Below, piece after piece: positions 2,884 to 52,640 of a stretch of 64,000 nucleotides of DNA. The position numbers and the translations under genes are program-made. The DNA lies in NCBI GenBank assembly GCA_951406725.2, contig OX597818.1:52142001-52206000 (forward strand), given 5' to 3'. Each line of letters begins with the position of its first letter. The first letter of the stretch is position 1. Below the pieces are notes generated by a model. It searched no databases. It saw only the letters and a list, made by a program, of their open reading frames with translations, and was not told where the DNA came from. The DNA is from Octopus vulgaris (taxonomy: Eukaryota).

Positions 2884-3377
2884 TATATAATTTTATATCT
2901 ATTTATGCACATGTATATATGTGTGTATATGCGCGTGTGTATATATATGTGTGTGTGTGTGTGTGTGTATATATGTGTGTATATAGGGGACGAGAGAGAG
3001 AGAGATGGAGGGTGGTAGCGAAAACAAGACAGAAAGATATGAATAATATATAAACGTTCCTTGGTCCATTTAGCTGTACAACACCGTATTTACTTGAATT
3101 TATCCACCATTGTCCATTATTATTATTAATAAGTTTGAAATTATTATCATCATTATTATTATTATCATTATCGATTTTTGATCAATTGATCTTGAGTACA
3201 TATTGACTTATTATGTTTTTCTGTTTGCAGATAATCCGCCAGCAGTTTTCGCACATCACTACACGACGTCTTGGGACACGCGGCCAATCAAAGTACGTCA
3301 GACATTTTGTTATGTTTAAAAAGCGTGGCTGTAATGAATTTGTTTAAAAATCAAAAGGACGGACATATGTGTTTGTT

Positions 3378-5483: not shown

Positions 5484-5993
5484 TCTATATATAGAAAACT
5501 GTAGTTGTGTGGGTGTCTGTCCCCTTCGATTTAGATTCCTAACTACTCCCACATTTTGCGGTGCAGTTTAACCAAATTCGGGTATCTTATAGTCGTGATT
5601 AATATCGAGCCCGTCTGGCTATTAGCGCGCGTCAACGATGAGTCTACGATTTTAAAAATAATTTAACATCATTTTTTATTCCATTTTAATGCATAATTTT
5701 TCGTGTGTCGATGGCGGCGGAGTTAGCGTCCACGCTCACAGCTGCACCTGTTTGCTTCTCCCCCTTCCCACCCTCGTGAAGCTGTGGGGAAGGGAGTGTA
5801 AGGAAATCAACGTCGTAATGCGTTGTCAAGGAGACCAGCGTTCTTTCAGAACAACGACTTCATGGCTTGAAGACACCAAAACAGAAATGGCTAAGAAAGC
5901 CCGAATTGGCATCTATAAGGGAAGTAACTCTCTAAAAATGCTTATATAGTTATTTCCCTTACAAACCCGAGCAACGCCGGGCGATACTGCTAG
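5484..5993 (+). mobile_element. Non-autonomous Helitron
   Basis: 5' A|TC start, 3' CCCGAGCAACGCCGGG hairpin followed by CTAG; no TSD. Confidence 0.85.
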
Positions 5994-7774: not shown

Positions 7775-8336
7775 TTGGGTTGTCCGAAAATTCGTGCTGA
7801 TAGCAGCTTACCTTTCGACTTATTTTAGAACATAGTTGAGTCCATAAAATAGGATTTCACTACACCTCCATTTAGAGCACAGTTTAAGCTACCTTTTCGT
7901 GGAAGAAGGTTTATGTTCCTTTAACCTGTGTTAATTTTGTAACCCTTTAAAATGGAAGATAACAAAGTTCATTTTCGGCACTTGATGCTTTGGGAACCAG
8001 ACAAAAATTGCTGCAGCTCGGCTGGGATGTGTTACCCCCACCCTCCATATTCACCAGATATTGCTCCTTCGGATTTCCACTTATTCATGTCTCTGCAGAA
8101 TAGTCTTAATGGTAAAAATTTCAGTTCCTTGGATGACGTAAAATGATACTTTAATGAATTCTTTGCCATGAAACCACCTCAATTCTGAGAACAGGGTATT
8201 TTCAAGTTAAAGGAAAGATGGAGACGCATTGTACAACAAAATGGTTCATATTTGGTTGATTAAAATTGTAACGGCAAGTATTTATTGACCTTTATCTTTC
8301 CTTTAAAAATCAGCACGAACTTTCCGGACAACCCAA
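7775..8336 (+). mobile_element. Internally deleted Tc1/mariner element (non-autonomous)
   Basis: TIRs TTGGGTTGTCCG.../...CGGACAACCCAA flanked by TA; remnant transposase HPPYSPDIAPSDFHLF with the mariner YSPD motif. Confidence 0.93.
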
Positions 8337-8515: not shown

Positions 8516-8584
8516 TTACGTTTATATATAAAAACTAATCTTATATTTCCCACTCTTTTTCAACAGGATGTTCCCTATCTGCAG

Positions 8585-8683
8585 ATTATGGCTTTCTCTC
8601 CTAGGTCGAAATTGGGCACATTACTTCCAGACTTTCCTGATATCAAGGATTTAAAGTTGCCTCCGAACGTGCCAGAAGACAAA
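8585..8683 (+). CDS. RFX4: RFX4-like exon (IMAFSPRSKLGTLLPDFPDIKDLKLPPNVPEDK); alternative in-frame start at 8567
   Basis: SPRSKLGTLLPxFP is an RFX4/6 signature; donor AAA|gttaga; two in-frame AG acceptors ending at 8566 and 8584. Confidence 0.9.
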
Positions 8684-11439: not shown

Positions 11440-11857
11440 AGGTGGCGAGCTGGCAGAAACGTTAGCACGCCGGGCAAAATGCTTAGCGGTATTTCGTCTG
11501 CCGTTACGTTGTGAGTTCGAATTCCGCCGAGGTCGACTTTGCCTTTCATCCTTTCGGGGTCAATAAATTAAGTACCAGTTATGCACTGGGGGCGATGTAA
11601 TCGACTTAATACCTATGTCTGTCCTTGTTTGTCCCCTCTGTGTTTAGCCCCTTGTGGGTAATAAAGAAATAGAAATAGGTATTTCGTCTGCGTTACGTTG
11701 TGAGTTCGAATTCCGCAGAGGTCGACTTTGCCTTTCATCCTTTCGGGGTCGATAAATTAAGTACCAGTTACGCACTGGGGTCGATGTAATCGACTTAATA
11801 CCTATGTCTGTCCTTGTTTGTCCCCTCTGTGTTTAGCCCCTTGTGGGTAAAGAAATA
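11440..11857 (+). mobile_element. SINE family A dimer
   Basis: Full tRNA-like head, two bodies, junction AAATAGAAATAG|GTATTTCG at 11678. Confidence 0.9.
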
Positions 11858-18696: not shown

Positions 18697-18833
18697 GTAA
18701 GTACAAAGAATCGACCATATTCATGTTTTATTCTTCTTTAGTCAAGATTCGATTGATATATTTGCCCAAGGTTGAGTCCCCAGCCAAGCCTTTCTTGAAA
18801 CCCTTAAAGCTAGGAACTTTACAGCAACCCTAC

Positions 18834-18948
<115 letters not shown>

Positions 18949-19544
18949 GAGCTAAATTAACCCTGGTTATGTACCTACTATATAGGTCAAATATATATGA
19001 TATTCATCAGAAATGTTTTTCATGTTTTTGTTTTTTTCCCCTTTTTTTTCATTTTGTACTTTAATTGTTTAGTGCAGAATCGTTGTTGTGAACATTTGTT
19101 TAGAAAATATTGGTGAATTGAATTTGAGACTTCAAATCGTACTTTATACAACTACAATTAAAAATGCACTTGAGAAAGCATGACAAATATCGTTTCAAAT
19201 TTTGCCACATGGTTAGCCAGCCATTTTAAGGAAGGGGATGAGTCGATTACATCGACCCCAGTGTTTCACTGGTACTTAATTTAACGACCCCGAAAGAATG
19301 AAAAGTCGACCTCGGCGGAATTTGAACTTGGAACGTAGCGACGAAATACCACGAAGCATTTGGCCTGGCACGCTAAAGATTCAAGCTTGACAAATATGAA
19401 TTTCAACTATCCTTCTTCAAAACTCTGTGATATTTAATTACGAAATATCAAAATAGTCCTACCTCTATCATCTAAACTTGGTTTTTTTTGTGTGTTTGTA
19501 CTTAAATCTTTCTACATTCTGCCATAGATAACTGTTTCTGTGTA

Positions 19545-19577
<33 letters not shown>

Positions 19578-19718
19578 TTTACGAGCTTTGAATGACACTA
19601 AAGCATCATAGTACATAGGTATTCTACAGAGTACCCAAAAGTTCATAGCAAAGGTTAAAATAAAACCAACATTACACATTGCCCGAGTATTCTGTCGACT
19701 ATCCAGATTGCTTTAGAA

Positions 19719-20020
19719 TAGTGCTTCTCAAACTATCTGCTGTGGCGTACCGGCAATTTTTTTTCCCAATGTTCAAGGACCGATAATATTTCTTAGTAAT
19801 ATTAATTTATACCGGAAACAATATATATATAATGAATATAATAAAAGTTGACAGTTTTTTTTATCTTATATTTATTTTGTAAACAAATAATACAATATTA
19901 TATAAGCAATTTATAAGCATTTTATAATGTTTCTTTCTTTTCTGGAAACTCGCCGCGTACTGGCAGCTGATGGTTCGCGGACCGGCACCGGTCCGCAGAC
20001 CACCACTTTGAGTAGCGCTG
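19719..20020. mobile_element. hAT (Charlie-like) MITE
   Basis: TIRs TAGTGCTTCTCAAA / TTTGAGTAGCGCTG; TSD CTTTAGAA / CTTTAGAG; subterminal GCGGACCGGCACCGGTCCGC palindrome. Confidence 0.8.
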
Positions 20021-20466
20021 CTTTAGAGAACGTTAATAAGGCGCGTGGCCAACTAGTTATGGTTTTGGATTAACGATCATAAGGTCTGGGGTTCAATTCC
20101 TGGTTCGAGTAGTATGTTGTCTCTGAACAAGGCACTTATTTCACATTACTCCAGAACCATTCCACAGACACGTGTACTCTTAATGTAATTCTCTGGCAGA
20201 ATCAGCGCGACGCAGTGTGTGACCAAGTTGTACCGCTTTCGAATAAAAATACAACCGACTCAATTTTTCTCACAAGGTATCGATTGATCTGATGCTATAG
20301 AAAATGGCATTTGCCCAAAACACCACGTAGTGAGATCGAACTCGGGGCTCGCAGCTACTGAGTGGCTTTCTTAGCGATTCGGCCACACTGCAACAAGCCT
20401 TTTTTGGCATTGGAACGCCTACACATACATGCACATGTATACGTATACGCTCTTTGATATATGCAG

Positions 20467-20872
20467 AGGGCTAAACACAAAGGGTTAAACATAGAGGGGA
20501 CAAACAAGGACAGACAAACGGATTAAGTCGATTACATCGACCCCAGTGCGTAACTGGTACCCATTTAATCGACCCCGAAAGGATGAAAAGCAAAGTCGAC
20601 TTCAGCGGAATTTGAACTCAGAGCATATAGACTGGCGAAATACTCTTAAGCATTTCGTCCGGCGTGCTAACGTTTCTGCCAGCTCGCCGCCTTCATGCTC
20701 ACGTATATTTATCAATCTGTCTTTACGTTTTCAGTTCAAATACCGCCGAGGTCGACTTTGCCTTTCATCCTTTTGGGGTCGATAAATTAAGTGCCAGTTA
20801 CGCACTGGAGTCGATCTAATCGATTGGCTCCCTCCCTCAAAATTACGGACCTTGTGCCAAGAGTAGAAAAGT
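20467..20872. mobile_element. Two SINE A copies in inverted orientation (20467-20692 minus, about 20720-20872 plus)
   Basis: Both match the family A body. Confidence 0.85.
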
Positions 20873-21371
20873 ATATTGATATATATAAAGTCGTAAGGAC
20901 ACAGACAGACAGACGGACGGACACACACACTTAACAGACGACTAGGTATCTGAGTGCGTGGGAACAATCCGAACCTTTTGTTTTCTTAAACTACGTTGCC
21001 TAGTCTTGGTGGAGGTAAACACTTTAGGAAGCTAAGAAGAAGAAGAAGAGGTGGAATAGTAATGAGAAAAAAAGGGATGAAAAGAAGGAGGTGAGGAAGA
21101 TAAAAAGAAAGATGGAGACGGGAAAGAAGACGAAGGAGGGGGAAAACGATGAAATAGACGGATAGAGATGCATTGAGATATAATGTAGGGGGTAGGGGTG
21201 TAGCAGAGTTGGGGGTAAGTCTTTGTTATTGTTGGTGCTTCGTCTGAGTTCAGACCGCCCTGAATGAGCAGACATACAGCCAAAGGCTTTCCAATCGTGA
21301 CCATTCCATCATATTTGCAAATCAGAGCAAAAAAGGTAAAAAAAAAAATTTTGAAAAAAAAAAAGACAACT

Positions 21372-21628
21372 GGCACTCCGTCGGTTGTGACATTCTGCTC
21401 GCGAAATTAATGAAATTAATGTGCAAGTGGCTGAGTACTCCACAGACAGCGTGACACACAGAGTGTAACAAGGCTGACCCTTTGAATTAGAGGCACAGTT
21501 CATTTTTGCCAGCTCAGTGGACTGGAGCAATGTGAAATAAAGTGTCTTGCTTAAGGACACAACGCACCGCCGAGAATTGAACTCACTGCCTTACGATTGT
21601 GAGCCGAATACCTTAACCATTAAACCAC
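21372..21628 (-). mobile_element. SINE family C (tRNA-derived); other copies at 20039-20230 (+), 23855-24038, 31284-31667 and 47759-48083 (-)
   Basis: Shared GCAAGTGGCTGAGxACTCCACAGACA and GTGTCTTGCTxAAGGACAC blocks; A/B-box head on the minus strand. Confidence 0.8.
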
Positions 21629-21649
21629 AGTCTTTTTTCTTTCTTTTTT

Positions 21650-21723
21650 TTTTGTATGGTGCAGTCGGTTAGCACGTTCGGCTGTTAACCGAAAGGTTGG
21701 TAGTTCAAGCCCACCAAGGGACT
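21650..21723 (+). pseudogene. tRNA-Asn(GTT) pseudogene
   Basis: TGGTGCAGTCGGTTAGCACGTTCGGCTGTTAACCGAAAGGTTGGTAGTTCAAGCCCACCAAGGGAC matches metazoan tRNA-Asn; the 5' acceptor strand is replaced by T-rich sequence and the T-loop reads TTCAA. Confidence 0.85.
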
Positions 21724-21868
21724 GCTGACATTTTTAGACTGGTAGAGTGTGATTTGTGGTGAAGTTCGACTGCTAAAACCAACATATTCAACACATTGTT
21801 CTCATTCTTTTCTTCTCGTCCTTCCTCCTCTCTTTCTTTCTTTCTTTCTCCTCTCTTTCTTTCTCCTC

Positions 21869-21903
<35 letters not shown>

Positions 21904-22516
21904 CTCTTTTCTTTCTTTCTTTCTTTCTCATTTCTTTCTTTCTTTCTTTCTCCTCTCTTTCTTTCTTTCTTTCTTTCTTTTTCCTCTCTTTCTTTCTTTC
22001 TTTCTCTCTTTCTCTCTTTCTTTCTTTCTTCCTTCCTCTCTTCAATTTCCAATGGGTGACCTTCTCGCCAATCCTCTGCGCTCCGTGTGTTACCTATCGA
22101 CCATATCATAACTTCACCTTTGACCCTTCTCCCACTACAACGCACTATACACACACACACACACACACACACACAACAACAACAACAACAGCAACAATAC
22201 ACACATACACAAGGGATTGTTGCTCAACGCTTAACTGTTCTTCATGGTGACCCGCTCAGCAAGAAGAGTTCGGCTCTTGTTTAATGTGGCGGAGAGAACG
22301 AATGAATGAGTAAAACCAAATTTTGGTGGCAGCGGGGGGGGAGGGGGAGAAAAACAAACAAACAAACAAACAAAACAATGAGAGAGGGGTAGAGGGAGAG
22401 AGAGAGTGGGGGTGGTACTGAGCTGAGTTGGGAGGTGGGGGGTTGGGATGTAAATTAGATTGGGACCACAACAGTATTTTTTTTGTTTTTTTTTTGGTTT
22501 TTCTTCTTAAAAAAAC

Positions 22517-22840
22517 AGTGATGATGATAATAATGGCGATCATAATTATAGCAAAGACGATGACGATGATGATGATGATGATAACTATCATCATCATCAT
22601 CATCATAATCGTCGCCATCATCATCGTCATCATCATCATAATCACCATGATAATCATAATACTCTTGATCGTGTGATAATAATGGCGATCATAATTATAG
22701 CAAAGACGATAGCGATAACTATGATGATGATGATGATGATGATGATGATAACTATCATCATCATCATCATCATCATAATCGTCGCCATCATCAGAATCAG
22801 AATCATAATCACCATGATAATCATGATACTCTTGATCGTG
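22517..22840. repeat. Tandem duplication of a ~160-bp unit containing (GAT)n followed by (ATC)n
   Basis: GATAATAATGGCGATCATAATTATAGCAAAGACGAT...TACTCTTGATCGTGT occurs twice. Confidence 0.85.
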
Positions 22841-25420
22841 TTGTTCTTCTTGCTGCTGTTGTGAGAGAGGTTTATGAATATGGTTGATCCGTGAATATGC
22901 TGTGGTGTAATTAACACGCTAATTAAGAGCTTTTGTTGTTTTCTTGTTTCATGCTTTGTTAATGATCTTATTGTTTGCTTTGTTACTATTGTCTTAACTA
23001 TGTCGTTGTTGTTGCTGCTGTTGTTGTTGTTGTTGTTTTTCATGCTTTGGATGTTTGTTGTTGTTATTGTTCGGGTGGTTTTGACAAAGTTTTTGAAAAT
23101 CACTTTGCGATCTCCCATTTATGACTTGCGCTAATTAAAATCCTGTTGTTAATTATCGTTATAGATAATTATTGCTATTTATTTTTGTATTATTTGTTTT
23201 ATTCATTGATTGTTGTTGTTGTTGTTGTTGTTTTGCTATTATTAATTTTTTTTAATTTTGGTTTTTAACCATTCCAGTTTCTCTTTTATTTTTTGTTGTA
23301 ATTGTTGTAGTTGTGAAAGTTACCGTTCTACAGCGGTTAATACTTTGCGCATAAAATTCTGTAGTTTAGTTTCGATTCTGCTTCGTCCGGCTTTCCGCTC
23401 TAAGTTCAAATTCCGCCGAAGTCGACCTTACCCTTCATCCTTTGGACGTCGATAAAATAAGTACCAGTTGTGCAATGGGGACAATCTAATCGATTTACCC
23501 CATTACATAACATCGCTGGCCTTGTGCCAACCGTTTAAATAAATTGTTGAAGCCTTCTCCTTCTTCTTCTTCCAATCAGGATTCACGCCATTAGCCACAA
23601 AAAATAATCTTTATTCGAGCCTACTCTAAGCTACTAACAATGCGTGTGGCAACTTGAGGATCCACCCACCACATGTGATAGACTGGCGGTTGCACGGGCG
23701 CGAAAGCTACGTTGTTATCCTCATTCCGTAAACGGTGGCTTTTAACGGGTGGAGAGCTGAACCATCCTGGGGTACAGAGGATTCGCAATCTAGACTAGGG
23801 TCTGAATGTTTACCACACCATAGTGAGTTACACCATGGTTCCTCTGCTTTTTAGCAGAAGTAGGAAGAAAGAGTGAGAGAAAGTTGTGGTGAAAGGGTCC
23901 CCCCCCCCACCGCCGGAGCTTCGTGGAGCTTATGTGTTTTTGCTCAATAAACACTCACAATGCCCGGTCTGGGAATCGAAACCGCGTTCTTACGACCGTG
24001 AGTCCGCTGCCCTAACCACTGGGCCATTGCGCCTCCACTGAAGCTGTTGTTGCTCCCTGTCTTCTTTTTGCATCTTCTCTGTCTTCTAACAGAGTTTGGT
24101 AGAGCAGGACCCAAATCCTTTATGGTGCTTGTTTGCAACCGTTGTCCGTTCTGAGTTCAAATCCAACTCAAGCCAACTTTGTGATTTTTATCCTTCCGTG
24201 ATCGATAAAATCATTTCTGTCATAGACAGGGCCTGAAACTATGGGGTAGGTGGCTAGTCGATTACATCGACCCCAGTGCTCAACTGGTATTTACTTCATC
24301 GACCCGAAAGGAAGAAATACAGAGTCGACCTCAGTAACATTTGAATTCAGTACAACAAGCCAGAAGACATACTGCTATGCATTTTGTCTCGAGCGATAAC
24401 GTCTCTGCCAGCTCGCCGCCTTTCGGTGGCCGATAAAATAAATGCCAGAACGTTAACGGCTGATCGAAGAGATAAGTTGGTCTTCAAGATGCAGATTTAG
24501 CTATGGTGCGTATGCAAAGCCAAAAATAAAATCCAATCTAGATGACCGAGATGGTGTGCACCCATATTGAGTGCGTTATAGTATTTATATTTGTCGGGGT
24601 TTTTTTCTATTACAATTCCATTCACCCTAGGATGCATTATAGAATATTAAATTGACTCTGTATTTGACCACGAAATAGTAAAACTGTAGCAGACCCTTCT
24701 CTCTCTCTTCTCTGTTTCCACTCTCTCCCTCCTATTTCCCTCTCACTTTATGTTCCGTGTCTTCCCGTGTTGATGATCATGGAACGCCATGCCAAAGTCT
24801 GAAGATTCGTGCCTTTCCTTAGCAAAGTTCCTGTGGTGGTTTTTTTCCCCGTTTCCTTCTTTCGGTTTATTAACAATTTATACTGCTAGTCTCACACATC
24901 CTAACCTTAAGGCACGTGACTCGGTACCCCTCATGCAGGGAGACTGGTTCGCGTAACTCACTACCCCCTTATGCAAGGGTGCGTTCACACACTGATGGGC
25001 CTGTAGAGCATATGTCTAAGAGGTTGCTTTCTGATATGACTCATAACTGAGCCCCTTGATTATCGTTACCATCCCTGGACAGAGCAGAGCTAGGAGTACT
25101 GGTGACTTACAAATAATAAGTCCTGGGGGCCAATTTGCTCGACTAAAAGCGGTGCTCCAGCATAGCCACAGTCAAATGACTGAAACAAGTAAAAGAGTAA
25201 AATACGTCTCAAATCGCGACGAAACTCCAAGGCAAGGTTGTGTGGTGAACAGTTTGCTTCCGGGTTCAGTCCCACTGCGTGGCACCTTGGGCAAGTGTCT
25301 TCTACTATAGCCCCGGGCCGACCAAAGCCTTGTGAGTGGATTTGGTCGGCGGAAACTGAAAGAAGGCCGTGACACACGCTCGCCAACCGGTGTTGATGTG
25401 TTTACATTTCCGTAACTTAG

Positions 25421-25648
25421 CTATTTCCTTACTACCCACAAGGGGCTAAACACAGAGAGGACAAACAAGGACAGGCAAATGGATTAAGTCGATTATATCG
25501 ACCCCAGTGCGTAACTGGTACCTAATTTATCGACCCCGAAAGGATGAAAGGCAAAGTCGACCTCGGCGGAATTTGAACTCAGAACGTAACGGCAGACGAA
25601 ATACCACTAAGCATTCCGCCCGGCGTGCTAACGATTCTTCCAGCTCAC
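25421..25648 (-). mobile_element. Full SINE A inserted into a SINE B copy (about 25238-25790)
   Basis: TSD CCGTAACTTAGC on both sides; the host SINE B continues after the insertion. Confidence 0.85.
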
Positions 25649-26096
25649 CGTAACTTAGCGATAGTGTGAGAGAGACCGATAGAATAAGTACCAGATATAA
25701 AAAGATTAATACTGGGATCGGTTCGTTTCACTAAAATTTTTCAAGGCGGAGCTCCAGTATGGCCGCAATCTAATGACAGAAGCAAGTAAGAGTCAAAACT
25801 TCACTGTTTTGCCCTTCCCTTTTTTTTTGGCTTTCGGGAACAATATGCTTCAGACTACATCATTTGTAAGATGTGGTTCCAAATGAGATTTAGCTGCTGC
25901 TTCTAGCGAGTTCAACGACCACACAGAGTCTCCTTCGTTTGTTCCTCTTCCCCCCATCATCATAGCTTTCGTTATAGGTGTTGATATGGTGTTTATTGCG
26001 ACGGTTTATTAAAGCTGAAGAGGGAGGTGGCTGGTTATTGTTCTCCGTGATTGTTGTGAGTTTTTACACACTCTCTTTTGTTGTCATCATCCTTGT

Positions 26097-26129
<33 letters not shown>

Positions 26130-26899
26130 CTCGTTGTTGTTGAATTATTTGTTGGAAAGCGTTGGAGTGAATGTCGAAGTCAACTATGTGTGTGTGTGTG
26201 TGTGTGTGTGGTGCACGGAGGTGCGTGGTGAAATGTATTAAAGAAATAAAAGGGAGGAAAAAATGACGTACGGGGGAAGAGATAATTGCGTGTGGTATGG
26301 GTAAAGTGAAGGTGAGGGCGGTCGCAGCTTTGGAAAAAGAAAAAAAAAATTTAAAAAAAGAGGAATAAATAAAGATATGAAGAAAGAACGAAAAACCATT
26401 GTGGGTGTTGGGGGTTTATGGGTGGGGGTGGGGTGGGGGAGGTAGGGTGGGTGAGGTTGCGGAGATGAGAAGAAAAGAATGATGAAAAAAAGAGATAGAA
26501 AAAATAAAAGCGAATGAAGGAGAGTATAAATCAGAAAAGAAGAGGGGAATAACGGCGTGCATGGAGATGAGTGTGTGTGGCGGCGGGGATAGCTGTAAAG
26601 AAGTGGAGGCAGGGGTGGGGGTGGGGGGATGAAGTGAGAGAAGGAAAGGAAAGGGCATTAAAGCGGGGGTGGGTGGGATGTGAGTAAGAAGGTGCAGAAA
26701 AAAGGGGACAAGGGGATGATAGAAAAGAGGAGGAGGAAGGGGGGAGAAGAAGAGGGGAGGAGAATAAATTGAAAAGAGAAGGATTTTTACCGCCATTATA
26801 CAAACACGCTCCAGCGAATCATAATTGGCTTTGTTGAATGAATGAAGAATTATTTGGGCTTAGAAAAAGGCGCAGTCCACATCCCAACAACCAATATAG

Positions 26900-27900
26900 C
26901 TCCTCACCACCTTCCTCTTCTTCCTCCTCCTCCTTCTCCTCCCTAACCCCTACACCTTACTCCCCTCACCCGCCCACCCACACTCTGTCACCGTCACCGA
27001 CGATTGCCAACCGACGTCATAATCGTTACCCTAATTATCATCACCATCATCACAATCATAATCACAACCGTCGTCATCATCGCCACCATCATCATCATCA
27101 TCAGCAGCAGCAGCAGCAGCAACACCATGGCTACCCGTCATAGCCAGCGTCGTCACCGTCATCCTCGCCATCGTCTCAGTCAGCACCGCCACCATCACCA
27201 TCACCTTTCTCTACAATTCCTCACCACAACCGCCGCCGCCACCACCACCACTAACAACAACTTCACTGCCACGAACCACCATCTTCAGCGTTCATTACAA
27301 CTCACCACAACCACCACCACCACTACCACCACCACAACCTTCACCACCACCACAACCAACACCACCACCACCACCACCACAACCACCACCACCACCACTA
27401 CCACCATCACAACCCCCACAACCACCACCACCACCACTATCACCACAACCACCACCACTACCACCATAACCACTACCACCACCACCACCACCACCACCAC
27501 TATCACCACTACCACCACCACTATCACCACAACCACCACCACTACCACCACCACCACTATCACCACAGCCACCACCACCACCGCCACCAAGACCATCACG
27601 TCACATCCAACGCTGACATTGCTAGCACCATCGCATTGTCATTGCAACCGCCATTAGATCGATCACCATCGCAACCGTCATCACCACCACCACCACCTCC
27701 ATCACGGTTCCTCCTTAACCACCATTGACGCAGCTACTACCATCGCAGCCAGTCATCACAAGCATTGCAACAACCATCACAACCGCCAGCGTCCCAATCA
27801 CTGCTAATCCCAGCCACTACTATCCTAGCAACCACTACAACCATCACCACCACCACCACCATGACAACGACAGCAACCACTACCACCGCCACAGCAACTG
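26900..27900. repeat. C-rich low-complexity (ACC/CAT/CAG)n field
   Basis: Directly visible; source of the poly-T/V/H ORFs. Confidence 0.9.
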
Positions 27901-27918
27901 CTTTTATCGCTATTACTA

Positions 27919-28484
27919 TTGGGTTGTCCGGAAAGTTCTTGCCGATTTTTAAAGGAAAGCAAAGTGTCAATAAATACTTGCCGTACATTTTTAACCAACC
28001 AAATATGACCCATTTTATTGCACAATGCATCTCCATCTTTCCTTTAACTTGAAAATACCCTCTTCCCAGAATTCAGGTGGTTTCATGGCAAAGAATTCAT
28101 TAAGGTTTCTTTTTACGTCATCCAAGGAATTGAAATGTTTACCATTAAGACTATTCTGCAGAGACCTGAATAAGTGGAAATCCGAAGGAGCAATATCTGG
28201 TGAATATGGAGGGTGGGGTAACACATCCCAGCCGAGCTGCAGCAATTTTTGTCTGATTCCCAAAGCATCAAGTGCTGAAAATGGACTTTGTTATCTATTT
28301 TAAAGGGTTACAAAATTAACACAGGTTATAGGAACATAAACCTTCTTCCACGAGAAGATAGCTTAAACTGTGCTCTAAATGAAGGTGTAGTCAAATCCTA
28401 TTTTATGGACTAAAATAACCATGTTCTAAAATAAGTCGAAATGTAAGCTGCTATAAATGGGCACGAACTTTCCGGACAACCCAA
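27919..28484 (-). mobile_element. Second copy of the internally deleted mariner element
   Basis: Same TIRs and TA flanks; ORF 28015-28263 GWDVLPHPPYSPDIAPSDFHLFRSLQNSL...GIFKLKERW. Confidence 0.94.
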
Positions 28485-29350
28485 TATTAGCTTCGTTAAT
28501 CCGCACCACATTCGTCACCACTTCACTACCCGCACCAATACCATCAAAACCAGCCCTTACACTTATCTCAGTTAATTAGCATCATCAACCACGAGAACGA
28601 TGAAGCCTTTAGTGGTCCTTCGACATGCTAGAAATAACAACTAAATCTATTTCGAAGCATATACAAATAACTTAAAATAAAGGCAAGAATACGTTAATAG
28701 CCCTTTCTAGTATAGGCACAAAGCCTGAAATTTTGAGGGATCGGGGTCAGTTAAATACATCGATCCCAGGGCTCAACTGTTACTTATTTTATCAATTCCG
28801 ATAGGACGAATAGCAAAGTCTCACCTCGGCAGCATAAACGTAAAGACGAACAAAATGTCGTTATGTGTTTCGTCCGGTCCGGTGTGCTAACGATTCTGCT
28901 TGCTCGCGCTCTTAAGGACGCAATAATACAGTTCTAGATAATTCTATAGGGTAAAAAAATGTATATATATAAAAAAGAAAGAAAAACAAAGACGGATTTG
29001 TGAGTGCTGGGATGCCATTGAATATAAGAACTTCTTGATAAGACCTGACCTAATGTGAAACAACAACAAAAACACTACCATTAAATGAATGAGTCAATGA
29101 GGGAACCTCAACGAGGCTCGGTCCAGTCCACCTGTTAGAAATAGCAGCCAAATTCCCTTTATCCCACATCTTACCGTCTTAAAAAATGGACATACTGGGT
29201 AATGTTGTTCTAGATACACTATCTGGAGTAACGCACCTACTCACGCACGTGTGCAAGCAGAGTGGATGGTCACTTTTGGAATGCCTTTAATCATAAGTTT
29301 GACCTGGGGCTAAACAGAATAATAACAACTATCGCAGTCAGTAACACTAC

Positions 29351-29567
29351 CATCACCGTAACAACCATCACCATAACAACCATTGCCATGACAGCCATCA
29401 CCATAGCAACCATTGCCGTCACAGCCATCATGATAGCAACCATCCCTATTATCATACCAACCATCACCATAACTAACACCACTATTGCAGCCGTCTCCAT
29501 AGCAACCATCACCATAACAACTATAGCCAATTGCAGCCGTCTCCATAACAACCATTACTATAACAAT
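29351..29567. promoter_or_regulatory. 15-bp minisatellite whose units match RFX X-box motifs
   Basis: GTCTCCATAGCAAC (29493-29506), GTCTCCATAACAAC (29539-29552), ATCACCATAGCAAC (29397), ATCACCATAACAAC (29367, 29508) and weaker variants; function untested. Confidence 0.55.
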
Positions 29568-30130
29568 TGTATCTTGTAGAGTAGTCGTTTTCAACTAGGG
29601 TTCATATGACCTTTGGGGGTCCGTATAAGATTTTGTTGTTAAAGTCTATGAGTAATAAATTAGTTATACTTCTGCAATTTTCTTCACGTCGAGTAGCTCA
29701 TCCTACTCAAGAGGTCCCTGAATAAGGGTTGTTTTAAGGATGATGAACAAAACACCCATGTTTCCAAAGGTGAATTATTCAAACCCCAAAGAATTCCTCT
29801 CAACTCATGATTATGATGCTCCTCCACTACTTCTGCTCGTGATCAGAGATGCACATATCGTCGGCCACCAAGGGACATACATGCTTAACTGATTAAGGTC
29901 AAACAACTGACAAGCAAATCTGTGGTATTGAGCAGAATATTTGCTGTAGCCCGTCTTTTATACAAAGACAAAACAATGTACATAATAACACTTCTAATCA
30001 GTTAAGATCAAAAGCCAAGACAGCCACTGCCTGGTACTCAGAAAGACGGATAAAACAGGCTTTAATAACAAGTCACAACATCTGTTTCTTTGCCGTGGCC
30101 TAGCATTAAGCTGCTGACTTTTCATTCACA

Positions 30131-30545
30131 TAGGCGCAGGAGTGGCTGTGTGGTAAGTAGCTTGCTAACCAACCACATGGTTCTGGGTTCAGTCCCACTG
30201 CGTGGCATTTTGGGCAAGTGTCTTCTACTATAGCCCCGGGCCGACCAATGCCTTGTGAGTGCATTTGGTAGACGGAAACTGAAAGAAGCCTGTCGTATAT
30301 ATGTATATATATATGTATGTGTATGTATATGTTTGTGTGTCTGTGTTTGTCCCCCTAGCATTGCTTGACAACCGATGCTGGTGTGTTTATGTCCCCGTTA
30401 CTTAGCGGTTCGGCAAAAAGAGACCGATAGAATAAGTACTGGGCTTACAAAAAGAATAAGTCCCGGGGTTGATTTGCTCGACTAAAGGCGGTGCTCCGGC
30501 ATGGCCGCAGTCAAATGACTGAAACAAGTAAAAGAGTAAAGAGAG
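30131..30545 (+). mobile_element. Full-length SINE family B (tRNA head, CORE-like block, internal microsatellite, LINE-derived tail)
   Basis: A-box TGGCTGTGTGG, B-box GGGTTCAGTCCC, tail GGTGCTCCxGCATGGCCGCAGTCAAATGACTGAAAC; similar copies at 55283-55685, 57337-57706, 60144-60520, 63221-63708 (+) and 30730-30985, 36265-36640, 44570-45618, 54205-54910 (-). Confidence 0.9.
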
Positions 30546-31242
30546 TATACAGTACATTACATAAAAGTATTTCATAAATAATTACGTAAATAAATAAATA
30601 AATATGTTTCAGCTACAGTCGTGTGCCAGTAATTCATCAGCTCAGAAACAAATGGAATTTATTTAGACCTGTTTTTTTTTCCACCTTCTCCTTGTGTAAA
30701 TTTTATACGAATTTACTATTTTACTATTTACTATTTTATTTGTTTCAGTCATTTGACTGCGGCCATGCTGGAGCACCGCCTTTAGTCGAGCAACTCGACC
30801 CCGGGACTTATTCTTTTTTTGTAAGCCCAGTACTTATTCTATCGGTCTCTTTTTGCCGAACCGCTAAGTGACGGAGACGTAAACACACCAGTATCGGTTG
30901 TCAAGCAATGCTAGGGGGACAAATACAGACACACAAACAAACACACATACATATATATATATATATAAATATATACGACAGGCTTTATGCACTAACAGAT
31001 TTTCATATGCTTATCCAGCTCATATGATGGTATATGGCAGCCGATAACACTATAGGAGCATTTAAATGCACGTTCGGAGGTTATTATCCAAGTAATATTG
31101 AATGAATTATAAATATATAGCCTGTAGGAGTTGGGCGCCCGATCGTGGGGCCTGCGAAACTTGAAGCAACACGGAGCCGAATCAAACAGTTTCAGATAAC
31201 ACACACACACACGTATTGTAGCAAATATAGTATATTGGCCCA

Positions 31243-31284
<42 letters not shown>

Positions 31285-31665
31285 TGGCACTACGTCGGTT
31301 ACGACGACGAGGGTTCCAGTTGATCCAATCAACAGAACAGCCTGCTCGTGAAATTAACGTGCAAGTGGCTGAGCACTCCACAGACACGCGTACCCTTAAT
31401 GTAATTCTCGGGGAGATTCAGCATGACACAGGGTGTGACAAGGCTGGTTCCTTTGAAAAATACAGGTACAGCAGGAACAGGAAGAAAGATTGGTAGAAAA
31501 TTGTGGTGAAAGAGTACTTGCAGGGTTCGCCACGAGCTCCTGCCGGAACCTCGTGGAGGTTTAGGTACTTTTGCTCAATAAATACTCACAACGCCCGGTC
31601 CTCGAATCGAAATCGTGATCTTATGACCGCGAGTCCGCTGCCCTAACCACTAGGCCATTGCGCCT

Positions 31666-31741
<76 letters not shown>

Positions 31742-32077
31742 AAACAGAAAGAAAATGTTGAATCCCAGACGTCATCGAAGCAAGCTACGATGATATTGAA
31801 GATTTAGGTCGGTCTATCCGTGATTATCCTGTTCCATTCAACTTAACAATGGAACAGGAAAAAAAAATTTACTAATATAAAAGATTTTGAAAAAAATCAA
31901 AACGTGAAAATGAATATTAACAAAAAAAAATAAACTAGAAGCTAAAATATATATATGATATTAGAGTTTTCTTTTTAATTCAATCCTTGAATTGAACAAA
32001 TATATTGGGCTAGTCGGCTATAACATAATAGGTTTAATGAATGGAGTTTAGACTCAATGTTCAATTTATACTTTATG

Positions 32078-32112
<35 letters not shown>

Positions 32113-32349
32113 TAATAATGATAATAAGTGTAATTCTGATTTGCCGAAAGTAACAAAATTATTGATTAGTTTGAACAGTGAAAAACAAGACAGTTTCTTT
32201 ATTATTAACTAAACAAAAACATTTTTTTTTTTTTCAGAAAATAGCGTGAAGATATTGATTCTTTTTACATAATTTTATATTCCTATTGAACTTCTCATGA
32301 GGTACTTTCTAGTTTATGTTGAAAAGTTTCAGTTTTATTCTCTCTCTCT

Positions 32350-32402
<53 letters not shown>

Positions 32403-32824
32403 ACGACTTATCGATCTTGACTGGGTAGTCTGTCCGTTCACTCATAATAGTAGCAGCCGACAGAACAAATACGCAGAAGAGACATTTAGACAACGAGGTG
32501 ATGGAGGTTGAAAATTTGGTTCTTAAGAAAACATCAATCTTCTTTTAGATGAAATGCTTTCTCTTTCCCTCTCTTTCTCTGTCTCTCTGTCTCTGTCTCT
32601 CTCTGTCTCTCTTTCGTTTATTGTATTCATTCTGTTGAGTGTTTTCGTGGCAAATAAAGTCACAATTACTCGAAGATGTTTGAACAGTATTTGGTTTGAT
32701 AGTATATTTTCCCCCTAACTCTATTACTTTTGAAACTGTAAATACGAATGGGAAATAATAAAATGAAAAATCAATGAATATCTTCTAAGTGAAATATCTT
32801 TCCTCTTATTCTATCTACTTTTAG

Positions 32825-33028
32825 TTGCAAGGCGTTTTTGTCAGTTATTGCGGCGGCAGACATCTTTAAACCACTTGTGTCAAGCTGCTCGAACGGTCAC
32901 ACAAAACAGAGAGATTACAAGTCAAATGTCTGAAGATTGGCTAAACATTGACCTCAATTCTATAGTAAAACAAACCCTCTACACTATGGACCACTACAGC
33001 GAGAAAGATCACAAGACGATTGCGAATT
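32825..33028 (+). CDS. RFX4: RFX4-like exon, extended dimerization region ([25 protein letters not shown]...[20 protein letters not shown])
   Basis: ttttag acceptor, T|gtaagt donor; [12 protein letters not shown] and KQTLYTM motifs. Confidence 0.96.
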
Positions 33029-33316
33029 GTAAGTACCTACGGCATCCTTTTACCCTACACCCACTTTTCTAAATAAATCGATAAATAATTGTGTGTGAAC
33101 GCGTACTTTCTTATCATCGACAGCCAACTTTTTATTTATAAAAGTAAAGGAAATATTACACTCGCGAGAAGAGCGTAATTGTTGCTCGGTGGACTTTCGG
33201 AAGAGCTATCGAGAACAGACACGCGTACCCTTAATGTAATTCTCGGGGAGATTCAGCATGACACATCGAGAACAGCAGGGCTGGATTAAGACCCATAGTT
33301 GCCTTATGCACTTTTC

Positions 33317-42036: not shown

Positions 42037-42820
42037 AAGGTGGCGAGTTGGCAGAAACGTTAGCACGCCGGGCAAAATGCGTAGCCGTATTTCGTCTGCC
42101 GCTACGTTCTGAGTTCAAATTCCGCCGAGGTCGACTTTGCCTTTCATCATTTCGGGGTCGATAAATTAAGTACCAGTTACGCACTGGAGTCGATGTAATC
42201 GACTTGATCCGTTTGTCTGTCCTTGTTTGTCCTCTCTGTGTTTAGCCCCTTGTGGGTAGTAAAGAAATAGAAATAGGTATTTCGTCTGCCGCTACGTTCT
42301 GAGTTCAAATTTCGCCGAGGTCGACTTTGCCTTTCATCCTTTCGGGGTCGATTAAATAAGTACCAGTTACGCACTGGGGTCGATATAATCGACTTAATCC
42401 GTTTGTCTGTCCTTGTTTGTCCTCTCTGTGTTTAGCCCCTTGTGGGTAGTAAAGAAATAGAAATAGGTATTTCGTCTGCCGCTACGTTCTGAGTTCAAAT
42501 TCCGCCGAGGTCGACTTTGCCTTTCATCCTTTCGGGGTCGATTAAATAAGTACCAGTTACGCACTGGGGTCGATATAATCGACTTAATCCGTTTGTCTGT
42601 CTTTGTTTGTCCTCTCTGTGTTTAGCCCCTTGTGGGTAGTAAAGAAATAGAAATAGGTATTTCGTCTGCCGCTACGTTCTGAGTTCAAATTCCGCCGAGG
42701 TCGACTTTGCCTTTCATCCTTTCGGGGTCGATAAATTAAGTACCAGTTACGCACTGGGGTCGATGTAACCGACTTAACCCCTTCCCCGATATCGCTGGCC
42801 GAGTGATAAAATTTGAAATC
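42037..42820 (+). mobile_element. SINE family A tetramer: head, three 190-bp units and a terminal tail-B unit
   Basis: Units start at 42087, 42277, 42467 and 42657, each with GTATTTCGTCTGCC; units are nearly identical. Confidence 0.93.
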
Positions 42821-47507: not shown

Positions 47508-48205
47508 TCCGCGAAGTCGTGAATCCGCGATAGTTGAACCGCGAAGTAGCGAGGGATCGCTGTATTACAGATTCTGCAATGGAGGACATAGGCTCTCGGT
47601 CGGTTCAAACTGCAATGTTTTTCAGTCCTTGCTTCCCAACCACATGGTTCCGGGTTAAATCCTACTTCATTAGGTGCCTTGAGCCTGAAACCAAATGGTT
47701 CCAAACCGCGATTCTTAACCACATATGATTTCTATTACTTAATTAATTAATTAAATAGGGAGCACTCCGTCGGTTACGACGACGAGGGTCCCAGCTGATA
47801 CGATCAACGAAACAGTTTGCTCGTGAAATTAAAGTCCAAGTGGCTGAGCACTCTACAGACATGCATACCCTTAACGTAGTTCTCAGGGAGATTCAGCATG
47901 ACACAGGGTGTGGCATGGCCGGCCCTTTGAACTACAGGTACAACTCATTTTTACCAGCTGAGTAGACTGGAGCAACGTGAAATAAAGTGTCTTGCTCAAG
48001 GACACAAAGCGTCGCCAGGAATTGAACGCATGACCTTACAGTCGTGAGCCGAATGCCCTAACCACTAGGCCACGCGCCTTCACAAATAATTAGTTGATTA
48101 ATTTGCCTTTCCAAATGTTAATTCGATTCCATTTTGTTACTGATTGCTAAATGTTTTTTGGGAGTGGTCAGCTGCTAATCGTCCTGATTTCCTTTCGTCC
48201 CGCAG

Positions 48206-48410
48206 TAACGACAACACCAGTTACACAGCCTATCAGACGATGAGAACACCATCGGCCACCTACGATTACTCCACATACACCTATCCAGATAATTACAGTC
48301 GGGCGGCTGCTGTCACCGTGGTTCCAAACACGACCCCCACCCCCGACGCCGTCTCTCCGCACGTCTATCATCCGCACCATCACCAGCATCACCAACAACA
48401 TCACCAACAA

Positions 48411-48441
<31 letters not shown>

Positions 48442-48761
48442 CTACAAGTTACGATGGCAACGCGCATATGAACAGCAGCAGCAGCGGCACTCACAATAAC
48501 GCCAACAGCAGCAACAGCAACAGCAGAAGCAGCAGCAGCAACAGTAACATCAGCAACCACAGCGGCAGCAACAACAACAACACGAGCAACACCAACGCCA
48601 ACACCACCAACAGCAGCTATTACGATGATAGCAGCCGAGTCGATTACTGCGGCACAACAAAGCGGAAGTACGATTCACACCAGGACACATTTTCCCGCCA
48701 CTACAAACGCTACAACCGTGAACAATATCCTTATCAAGTAACTTCCGGTGGTTACATGTAA
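48206..48761 (+). CDS. RFX4: RFX4-like last coding exon (Y/S/T-rich, poly-H/Q, N/S-rich; ends ...YPYQVTSGGYM*)
   Basis: cctttcgtcccgcag acceptor, phase-2 entry matches the previous donor, TAA at 48759-48761; part of ORF 48144. Confidence 0.82.
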
Positions 48762-50830: not shown

Positions 50831-51326
50831 TCGATTCAATGTGTAGAGCGATGTAAAAATACTCTGTACCTACATAGACAATACCTGGTTCATTACCCTG
50901 AAAAAAACTGAATTAGAATTTCACCTCTTGAGCGGTTAATTGTAATATATTACTCATATAAATAGTGAAAAACAAAAATGAACTAATGAACGTAAAATAT
51001 AATAACTACCCATGAGTAGGAGTAAAAAAAAAAATTATAATTTCAAGAAAAGATAACGAGAACACAATGTTTAAAGGCTGTGACTGTCTCAGTCAATTTT
51101 CCCCACTCCCGTACTTTTTTTTTTTTTTTTCTGTTTTCGTTTATAAGAACGTTAGAGTTGCACGCTCTGTTTGTTTCAGGAAAAAAAGAGAAAAAAATTC
51201 AATATTTTACAGTTGGTTTGGTCTTTATCTATTACCCGTTCGTAAGAATTGGTATCTTACCGTTGGGATGGATTGAAATCTATTCATTGGTCAATGTTGT
51301 ATTAAAATTTGTGGTACCTGAGTGGT

Positions 51327-51984: not shown

Positions 51985-52640
51985 ATGATGGCTGCCCCCT
52001 CGTTATCGAGTATGGCCATTGCACAAAGCTTAACTGTTATTGGTGCTGTGATCGAATGTGACTTATTAGCCTAGCTAAAGATCTACAATGTCTTGTACAG
52101 AATTGGCAGCTAATTCCTTTACCGGTAATAGCCGGCTGTAGTTGTAACTGGGCTTTATGTAACTTTGCACGTCGTTTAAGTCCTCCTGCCGAATTACACT
52201 CCCTTTTACATACCTGACAGATATGATTAGTATGGTGTGTTACACCACCACCAGTGGCCAAGTTGTCACTCATCTGTCTCGCTTTATGACTACGAAGATG
52301 ACTCTTGAGTCCAGCTTTACTGAAGCAGGGTCTTGCACAGACACTGCATGTCAGCATCATAGGAAGACCCTTACCATCTGGAAATGCAACAGTGATGCCC
52401 TTCCTGACATCCCTCCTTACTTTCTCATGCGCAACTCGAGATTTCTCAAAAGAAGCTGTCCCCTCGTGCACAATCCTTCTCCACCTGCTACGGTCAATAG
52501 CTATGCCCTCCCATGTGTCAGGGGAGATGCAAGCATCTTTTAAGGAAGCCTTCGGCAAGTTCTTATACCTCTTTTTTGGTTTATGCGGAGGTCGTTCTCC
52601 TTTGCTAACTCTCCATAAAAGAGTTATGGGGAGTTAGTTA
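51985..52640 (-). mobile_element. RTE-clade LINE 3' fragment with three C2H2-type zinc fingers
   Basis: G.RP...PKKRYK..LK and W...A.DRSRWR motifs typical of RTE ORF C-termini; CxxC...H...H repeats; stop, short UTR and (TGTA)n; flanked by (TACA)n. Confidence 0.8.

Follow-up and report, generated by a model that had tools for sequence, protein, structure and literature searches.

A degenerate 15-bp minisatellite with RFX X-box matches in an intron of octopus RFX4

The RFX4 locus and the array

We analysed a 64-kb stretch of Octopus vulgaris DNA (hereafter the window), which contains most of an RFX gene on its plus strand. The gene is RFX4, as its exons indicate: the protein search found the exon at 32825-33030 to be 100% identical to the Octopus vulgaris RFX4-like protein P0001, which carries PF02257 and PF25340, and the named ones among the 34 matches of this search are RFX4-like. 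P0001 was placed by tblastn from residue 117 onward, beginning at 3228. Residues 1-116 had no tblastn placement within the 64-kb window, so the start codon of RFX4 lies upstream of it, at least 29 kb from the array described below. An alignment with ten other RFX4 proteins shows the DNA-binding domain to be conserved. A literature search found no paper naming both "octopus" and "RFX4". The features around the array are as follows.

18697..32824, plus strand: GT-AG intron of RFX4, 14,128 bp, within the region coding the BCD/dimerisation part
29105..29348, plus strand: decayed interspersed-repeat copy and A/C-rich triplet tail entering the array (contig depth)
29349..29565, plus strand: degenerate 15-bp minisatellite, about 14 units, five triplets per unit (TRF, lag profile, row identities)
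29480..29571, plus strand: 46-bp tandem duplication, 38/46 identical, doubling the strongest site (called by TRF at 29453-29566)
29575..30040: two high-copy interspersed repeats immediately after the array, with approximate boundaries (depth table)
32825..33030, plus strand: the RFX4 exon that follows, 3.3 kb past the array (protein match, tblastn)

Two further observations concern the gene itself. P0001 terminates via an exon at 51146 (51146-51241), with a tail unlike that of other RFX4 proteins; an open frame at 48144-48761 ends in a basic closing motif resembling the C-terminus of abalone RFX4 (14/33 identical, E 8e-4). The true last exon is probably this one, at 48.2-48.76 kb, and the annotated 3′ end of RFX4 may be wrong. 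Compared with the ten other proteins, octopus RFX4 also contains six additional residues after residue 175 (8570-8590 region), possibly from use of an upstream splice acceptor.

The first-pass annotation had described a 15-bp-period repeat in a 14-kb intron of an RFX gene, and we recovered it at 29349-29565, in degenerate form, within the 14,128-bp RFX4 intron. All eight units that it quoted were found (29351, 29366, 29381, 29396, 29426, 29492, 29507, and 29538), together with one absent from its list, at 29411. TRF reports 29349-29566 with period 15, 14.1 copies, and 63% matches, and base matches are highest at lags 15 (0.59) and 30 (0.55), over a period-3 background of about 0.34-0.45. The register shifts twice, where the step between units is 21 bp (at 29439) and 16 bp (at 29520). 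Nearly all triplets begin with A or G, the 12 regular rows have a mean identity of 84% to their majority, and two unit types alternate in the first half of the array. With head-to-tail units of period 15, the array falls within the 10-60 bp range of minisatellites. Open frames across it (29232-29579 and others on the minus strand) were rejected as coding sequence, being low-complexity products of the triplet repeat, and no Rfam family matched in 25900-32900.

X-box matches and their excess over chance

X-box calls rest on the JASPAR RFX2 matrix MA0600.1, taken from the supplement of PMC5838959 with its T row derived by subtraction from the column total, and on a restricted Drosophila consensus (PMC2375033). 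The matrix is that of human RFX2 rather than of octopus RFX4; the mouse RFX1-3 motifs are near-identical according to the accessible part of PMC7498320. Like the known RFX X-box (JASPAR MA0600.1; Laurencon 2007, PMC2375033, as far as the text at hand describes it), the octopus sites are 14-bp imperfect inverted repeats with a central AT. The array contains six matches by the RFX2 matrix at p≤1e-4; organism E in the list is one of the five compared in the next section.

29493..29506: highest-scoring X-box match of the window (20.3 bits; p 6e-8; 0.955 of the matrix range)
29397..29410: X-box match, 16.7 bits; an identical extra copy lies in the 30-bp block of organism E
29539..29552: X-box match, 16.1 bits; second copy of the 29493 site through the 46-bp duplication, outside the contigs of organism E
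29367..29380: X-box match, 12.5 bits; identical in all 14 bases to 29508-29521
29508..29521: X-box match, 12.5 bits; the contig alignment of organism E ends inside it, after 29514
29382..29395: X-box match, 11.9 bits; in organism E three substitutions reduce its forward score by 8.4 bits, to below threshold

The annotation had singled out the reverse strand of 29493-29506 as a strong X-box match and had stated that several other units fit as well. Both statements agree with the matrix: the reverse strand reads GTTGCTATGGAGAC, the best site of the window, and other units are among the six that pass by the published matrix. The RFX-matrix scan that it had proposed as a check yields 24 sites at p≤1e-4 in the window, of which 6 are in the array, as are 3 of the 6 at p≤1e-5. 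The sites at 29493 (minus strand) and 29539 also fit the restricted Drosophila consensus, and the strict mammalian X-box consensus, as written down for this analysis, fits nowhere in the window. Judged from their sequence, the strong array sites are likely to bind RFX on naked DNA. The six sites derive from about three unit variants, which favors reading them as incidental to the repeat.

How far the cluster exceeds chance depends on the null, and all nulls come from one 64-kb window plus simulation. Shuffling the bases of the array gave 0.05 hits per array and six hits in 0 of 5000 shuffles. Shuffling its triplets raised the mean to 0.99 hits, a value that speaks for incidental matches, with six hits in 1 of 5000; we discounted the resulting P of 2e-4 as overly generous, since duplicated units are treated as independent. 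Nulls that keep the periodicity gave P between 0.007 and 0.08 overall. Among the circular orders of the five triplet columns, 2 of 24 (the real order included) reach the observed sum, again in favor of an incidental origin. When nucleotide columns were permuted within triplet position (30000 trials), P(≥6 hits) was 0.022 and P(sum ≥ observed) was 0.007; the latter counts against an incidental origin, as does the appearance of a 20.2-bit site in only 0.3% of the permutations. Simulated 14-unit arrays with five triplet vocabularies gave P(≥6) of 0.0002-0.037.

No other 250-bp segment of the 64 kb scores as high as the array (sum 90, next 47), which weighs against incidental matches. For a gene-wide null we shuffled the matrix columns and took the best 250-bp window in 3200-48800, with 1200 trials per scheme. 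P(sum≥90) was 0.0033 with free shuffling and 0.023 with the palindrome kept, pointing the same way; P(≥6 hits) was 0.010 and 0.043, respectively.

The window's other triplet tracts, 4259 bp in all, contain 8 hits, and 59477 bp of other sequence contain 10, an 11-fold difference in rate that supports the incidental reading. One of these matches (48448-48461, 15.0 bits) falls in coding sequence, in the Gln/Asn/Ser-rich probable last exon, and supports it likewise. C/A-rich tracts have 7 hits in 1285 bp, these tracts having been picked after the hits were seen. The largest group lies upstream of the array in the same intron.

27037..27900, plus strand: degenerate ACC/ATC triplet tracts with six weaker matches at p≤1e-4, the best of 13.8 bits

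These tracts are either an internal comparison for the array or part of its site-rich zone. They belong to a segment (26200-27950) that opens with purine-rich sequence and continues as long degenerate ACC/ATC tracts. No other part of the window is as GC-rich, and CpG o/e is 0.94 over 26840-27950.

The site cluster is real and modestly above chance. From the shuffle, permutation, and tract results, much of the signal comes from composition and is multiplied by duplication, and a modest excess is left. Since the array was picked in a very large scan, with 423 annotated windows from this genome alone, P values near 0.01-0.04 are expected now and then and are not decisive.

Comparison between organisms and flanking repeats

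The array stretch was found, whole or in part, in 20 of the 24 public runs listed, which fall under five coded organism labels (A-E). We compared seven runs: A (X1, X2), B (X4), C (X6), D (X8), and E (X10, X12); rare variants are lost from contigs, and the assembly may derive from one or both of the A runs. Label A shows no differences. Labels B and C show 4 and 5 substitutions, respectively, in 505 bp, most of them unplaced, and one 1-bp gap, which is outside the array. The sole difference of label D in 315 bp is at 29500, inside the best site, where it costs 3.4 bits; it favors the incidental reading and may be an error, as it comes from one contig at depth 4.8. Copy number had been proposed to act as a tuning knob, an idea that is not supported here: no indel was seen in the array in 5/5 runs of A-D, and a length difference in E only.

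The two runs of label E come from two studies and give the same piece, with 23 substitutions in 29113-29514 (5.7%). Both share an additional 30-bp block (two units) after 29420, which includes a copy of the 29397 site, and an additional 9 bp after 29445. The repeat is present in E and is therefore older than the split from E, and the array changes in whole units between species.

The bearing of these differences on function is divided. Persistence of the array across about 6% divergence argues against an incidental role for the sites, as does the further good site in the extra block of E. No listed substitution falls in 49 bp of the top A-type sites (chance 0.06-0.12), which was counted on the same side, with 2 of 16 substitutions unplaced: over 29240-29514, 14 of the 16 were placed, four of them by distance to the end of the piece, and the other two could be in the best site. 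Three substitutions take the 29382 site below threshold in E, in favor of incidental matches, and all three differences favor the X-box in the octopus lineage of the window, against it. The E contig continues with 51 unaligned letters after 29514, which counts for an incidental origin, and 29528-29572 is outside all E contigs, so that the second strong site is not covered there.

The array begins where an interspersed repeat ends. In contigs of the public runs, 29105-29200 and 29264-29316 are multi-copy, with a depth of about 50-90x single copy, and other genomic copies of this upstream element, presumably a SINE, pass 29316 into an AAC/AAT tail at the place where the array starts, as expected if the sites are incidental to a decaying tail. 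The window's own sequence has a short tail and then the array, so that the array sets in where the 3′ simple-repeat tail of an interspersed element lies, as a retroposon-tail repeat does. Units similar to those of the array are present at other loci, given that the summed depth of 29348-29383 is about 20-30x single copy in the four runs examined; roughly 20-30 other loci match this segment at ≥80%, in further support of an incidental origin. Directly downstream of the array high-copy repeats resume, with a second copy at 1227-1520 of the window. Metagenome scans by SINE pattern (octopus DNA) and by a two-unit array pattern returned no match.

SINEs often end in tandem repeats, according to the available portion of PMC4758252, and the octopus case resembles those 3′-terminal repeats in being a simple-repeat tract at the 3′ end of an interspersed element. 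It differs in that the octopus tail became a 15-bp higher-order repeat. Other repeats of the window include tandem arrays of a 150-190-bp SINE-like unit (52-625, 11488-11850, and 42087-42777) and a 198-aa open frame with C2H2 zinc-finger matches on the minus strand (52037-52633), preceded by sequence that we take to resemble the end of a LINE reverse-transcriptase frame. Short transposase-like relics lie at 7943-8170 and 28015-28300, the second without a Pfam family above cut-off; by motif we assume both to be of mariner type. Satellites derived from SINEs have reportedly been found.

Interpretation of the array

On balance, and going by sequence, we regard it as probable that the array is a retroposon-tail minisatellite that likely binds RFX in vitro, and that selection for feedback played no part in it. 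An interspersed repeat's AAC-type tail would have decayed into a mixed triplet tract, in which slippage copied a five-triplet unit that matched the X-box by coincidence. Copying would then have turned one such match, or a few, into six, with the 30-bp and 46-bp duplications multiplying sites, and later point changes may have improved some copies and spoiled others; RFX occupancy in cells, if any, would be incidental. The array starts at a tail, is made of A/G-initial triplets, contains sub-duplications, and differs by two whole units between species; its X-box matches are likely a by-product of its triplets.

The regulatory setting is consistent with this. CpG o/e is 0.67 in the array, the median of the window being 0.90, and the single donor-like splice match in 28000-32800 lies in a SINE copy, both in favor of incidental matches; neither check revealed a promoter signature at the array. 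With the start codon upstream of the window, the array is probably beyond the start-site proximity typical of X-boxes (about 500 bp; permissively -2300 to +1400), though a start missing from the annotation may lie closer. According to the available text of PMC5838959, most functional X-boxes in human sit no more than 500 bp from a start site and RFX genes seldom regulate themselves, which also favors the incidental reading, and in Drosophila a degenerate X-box upstream of a gene is not predictive unless conserved (PMC2375033, in the part accessible). Known functional X-boxes are mostly single, near a start site, and conserved between distant species, whereas the octopus ones are tandem and deep intronic.

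The strongest competitor holds that a repeat-born element was captured for autoregulation: dimers of RFX4 or a paralogue on the strong, well-spaced 29397, 29493, and 29539 sites would loop to the RFX4 promoter, in positive or negative feedback kept by selection in octopods. We consider this rather unlikely, although it has more in its favor than the other alternatives. The array is the gene's best cluster (P 0.003-0.043 after gene-wide correction), the RFX4 DNA-binding domain is conserved, and the top sites are without a listed substitution in E (2/16 unplaced), which has one copy more; the excerpts available from the literature add that autorepression of RFX1 is known (PMC8106159), that validated distal X-boxes exist, one of them about 38 kb upstream (PMC5838959), and that mouse RFX peaks occur in introns (PMC7498320). 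Against it, the test of site conservation in E is not significant, one site is sub-threshold there and the 3′ third is unaligned, 2 of 24 column orders score equally high, the array is wedged between transposon copies, and its P values are of a size that a very large scan yields occasionally. The evolutionary form of the claim, that octopod RFX4 gained a feedback element de novo when a retroposon tail became a 15-bp repeat with units of one X-box and a single further base, with RFX binding tuning RFX4 and species differing in site number, is unlikely in our estimation. A literature search, as far as the sources at hand go, found no feedback element born from a retroposon tail in an RFX gene.

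A very unlikely possibility is that the X-boxes drive an internal promoter, with an intronic transcript spliced to the 32825 exon and RFX4 translated from Met363; the product, a dimerisation-only RFX4 that lacks DNA binding, would dampen full-length RFX. X-boxes do act mostly near start sites and a human RFX4 isoform without the DNA-binding domain is described in the accessible text of PMC5838959, and Met363 is nearly invariant in 11 aligned proteins, but this conservation may be structural, CpG is not enriched, and between the array and the next exon the one strong donor is in a SINE. Still more improbable is that RFX binding shaped the repeat itself, stabilising or favoring units that keep a site while leaving RFX4 expression unaffected. 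As this would predict, a good site is present in both duplicated blocks, the 46-bp one here and the 30-bp one in E, but most units bear one, so any duplication includes one; the array is moreover small and old, and a sequence look-up gave no satellite family. The least credible proposal is the decoy role raised by the first-pass annotation, in which the array would titrate RFX protein off its targets. Several good sites do lie close together, but site numbers make the role implausible: chance gives 1.28 sites at p≤1e-5 per 64 kb and about 3000 on the 147.5-Mb chromosome of P0001, and three extra sites cannot titrate RFX among so many.

Two kinds of known system come closest. RFX1 and yeast Crt1, which repress their own genes, likewise have RFX sites in the locus of an RFX gene (PMC8106159, in the part available), there within -355 to +1 of the start site and with binding demonstrated (PMC8106159, PMC5838959, same restriction); the octopus case differs in concerning RFX4 and predicted, repeat-derived sites at least 29 kb downstream of the start. 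Tandem repeats in general can bind transcription factors and tune occupancy (Horton et al., bioRxiv 10.1101/2022.05.24.493321, in the text accessible). The octopus array is like such repeats in having many repeated or overlapping sites and a copy number that can change, here between species. For the known examples, as far as the sources at hand describe them, binding was measured or length varies within species, whereas the octopus array showed no length variation in A-D and its candidate factor is the host gene's own product. Among such repeats, the MNS16A minisatellite is said to contain GATA1 sites, and the autorepression of RFX1 and Crt1 was reportedly described by Lubelsky in 2005.

A functional array would make it possible to trace how a microsatellite gave rise to a feedback loop in a gene whose product regulates ciliary and neural programs, and natural variants between octopus species could be compared in one reporter assay. 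A non-functional one is a warning: triplet repeats rich in C/A, a frequent feature of octopus introns, resemble X-boxes about 11 times as often as other DNA in the window, so motif scans for cephalopod RFX targets should be controlled for repeats. Outside the triplet tracts, an isolated 16.2-bit X-box match is present at 5822-5835, in the intron between two exons of the DNA-binding domain.
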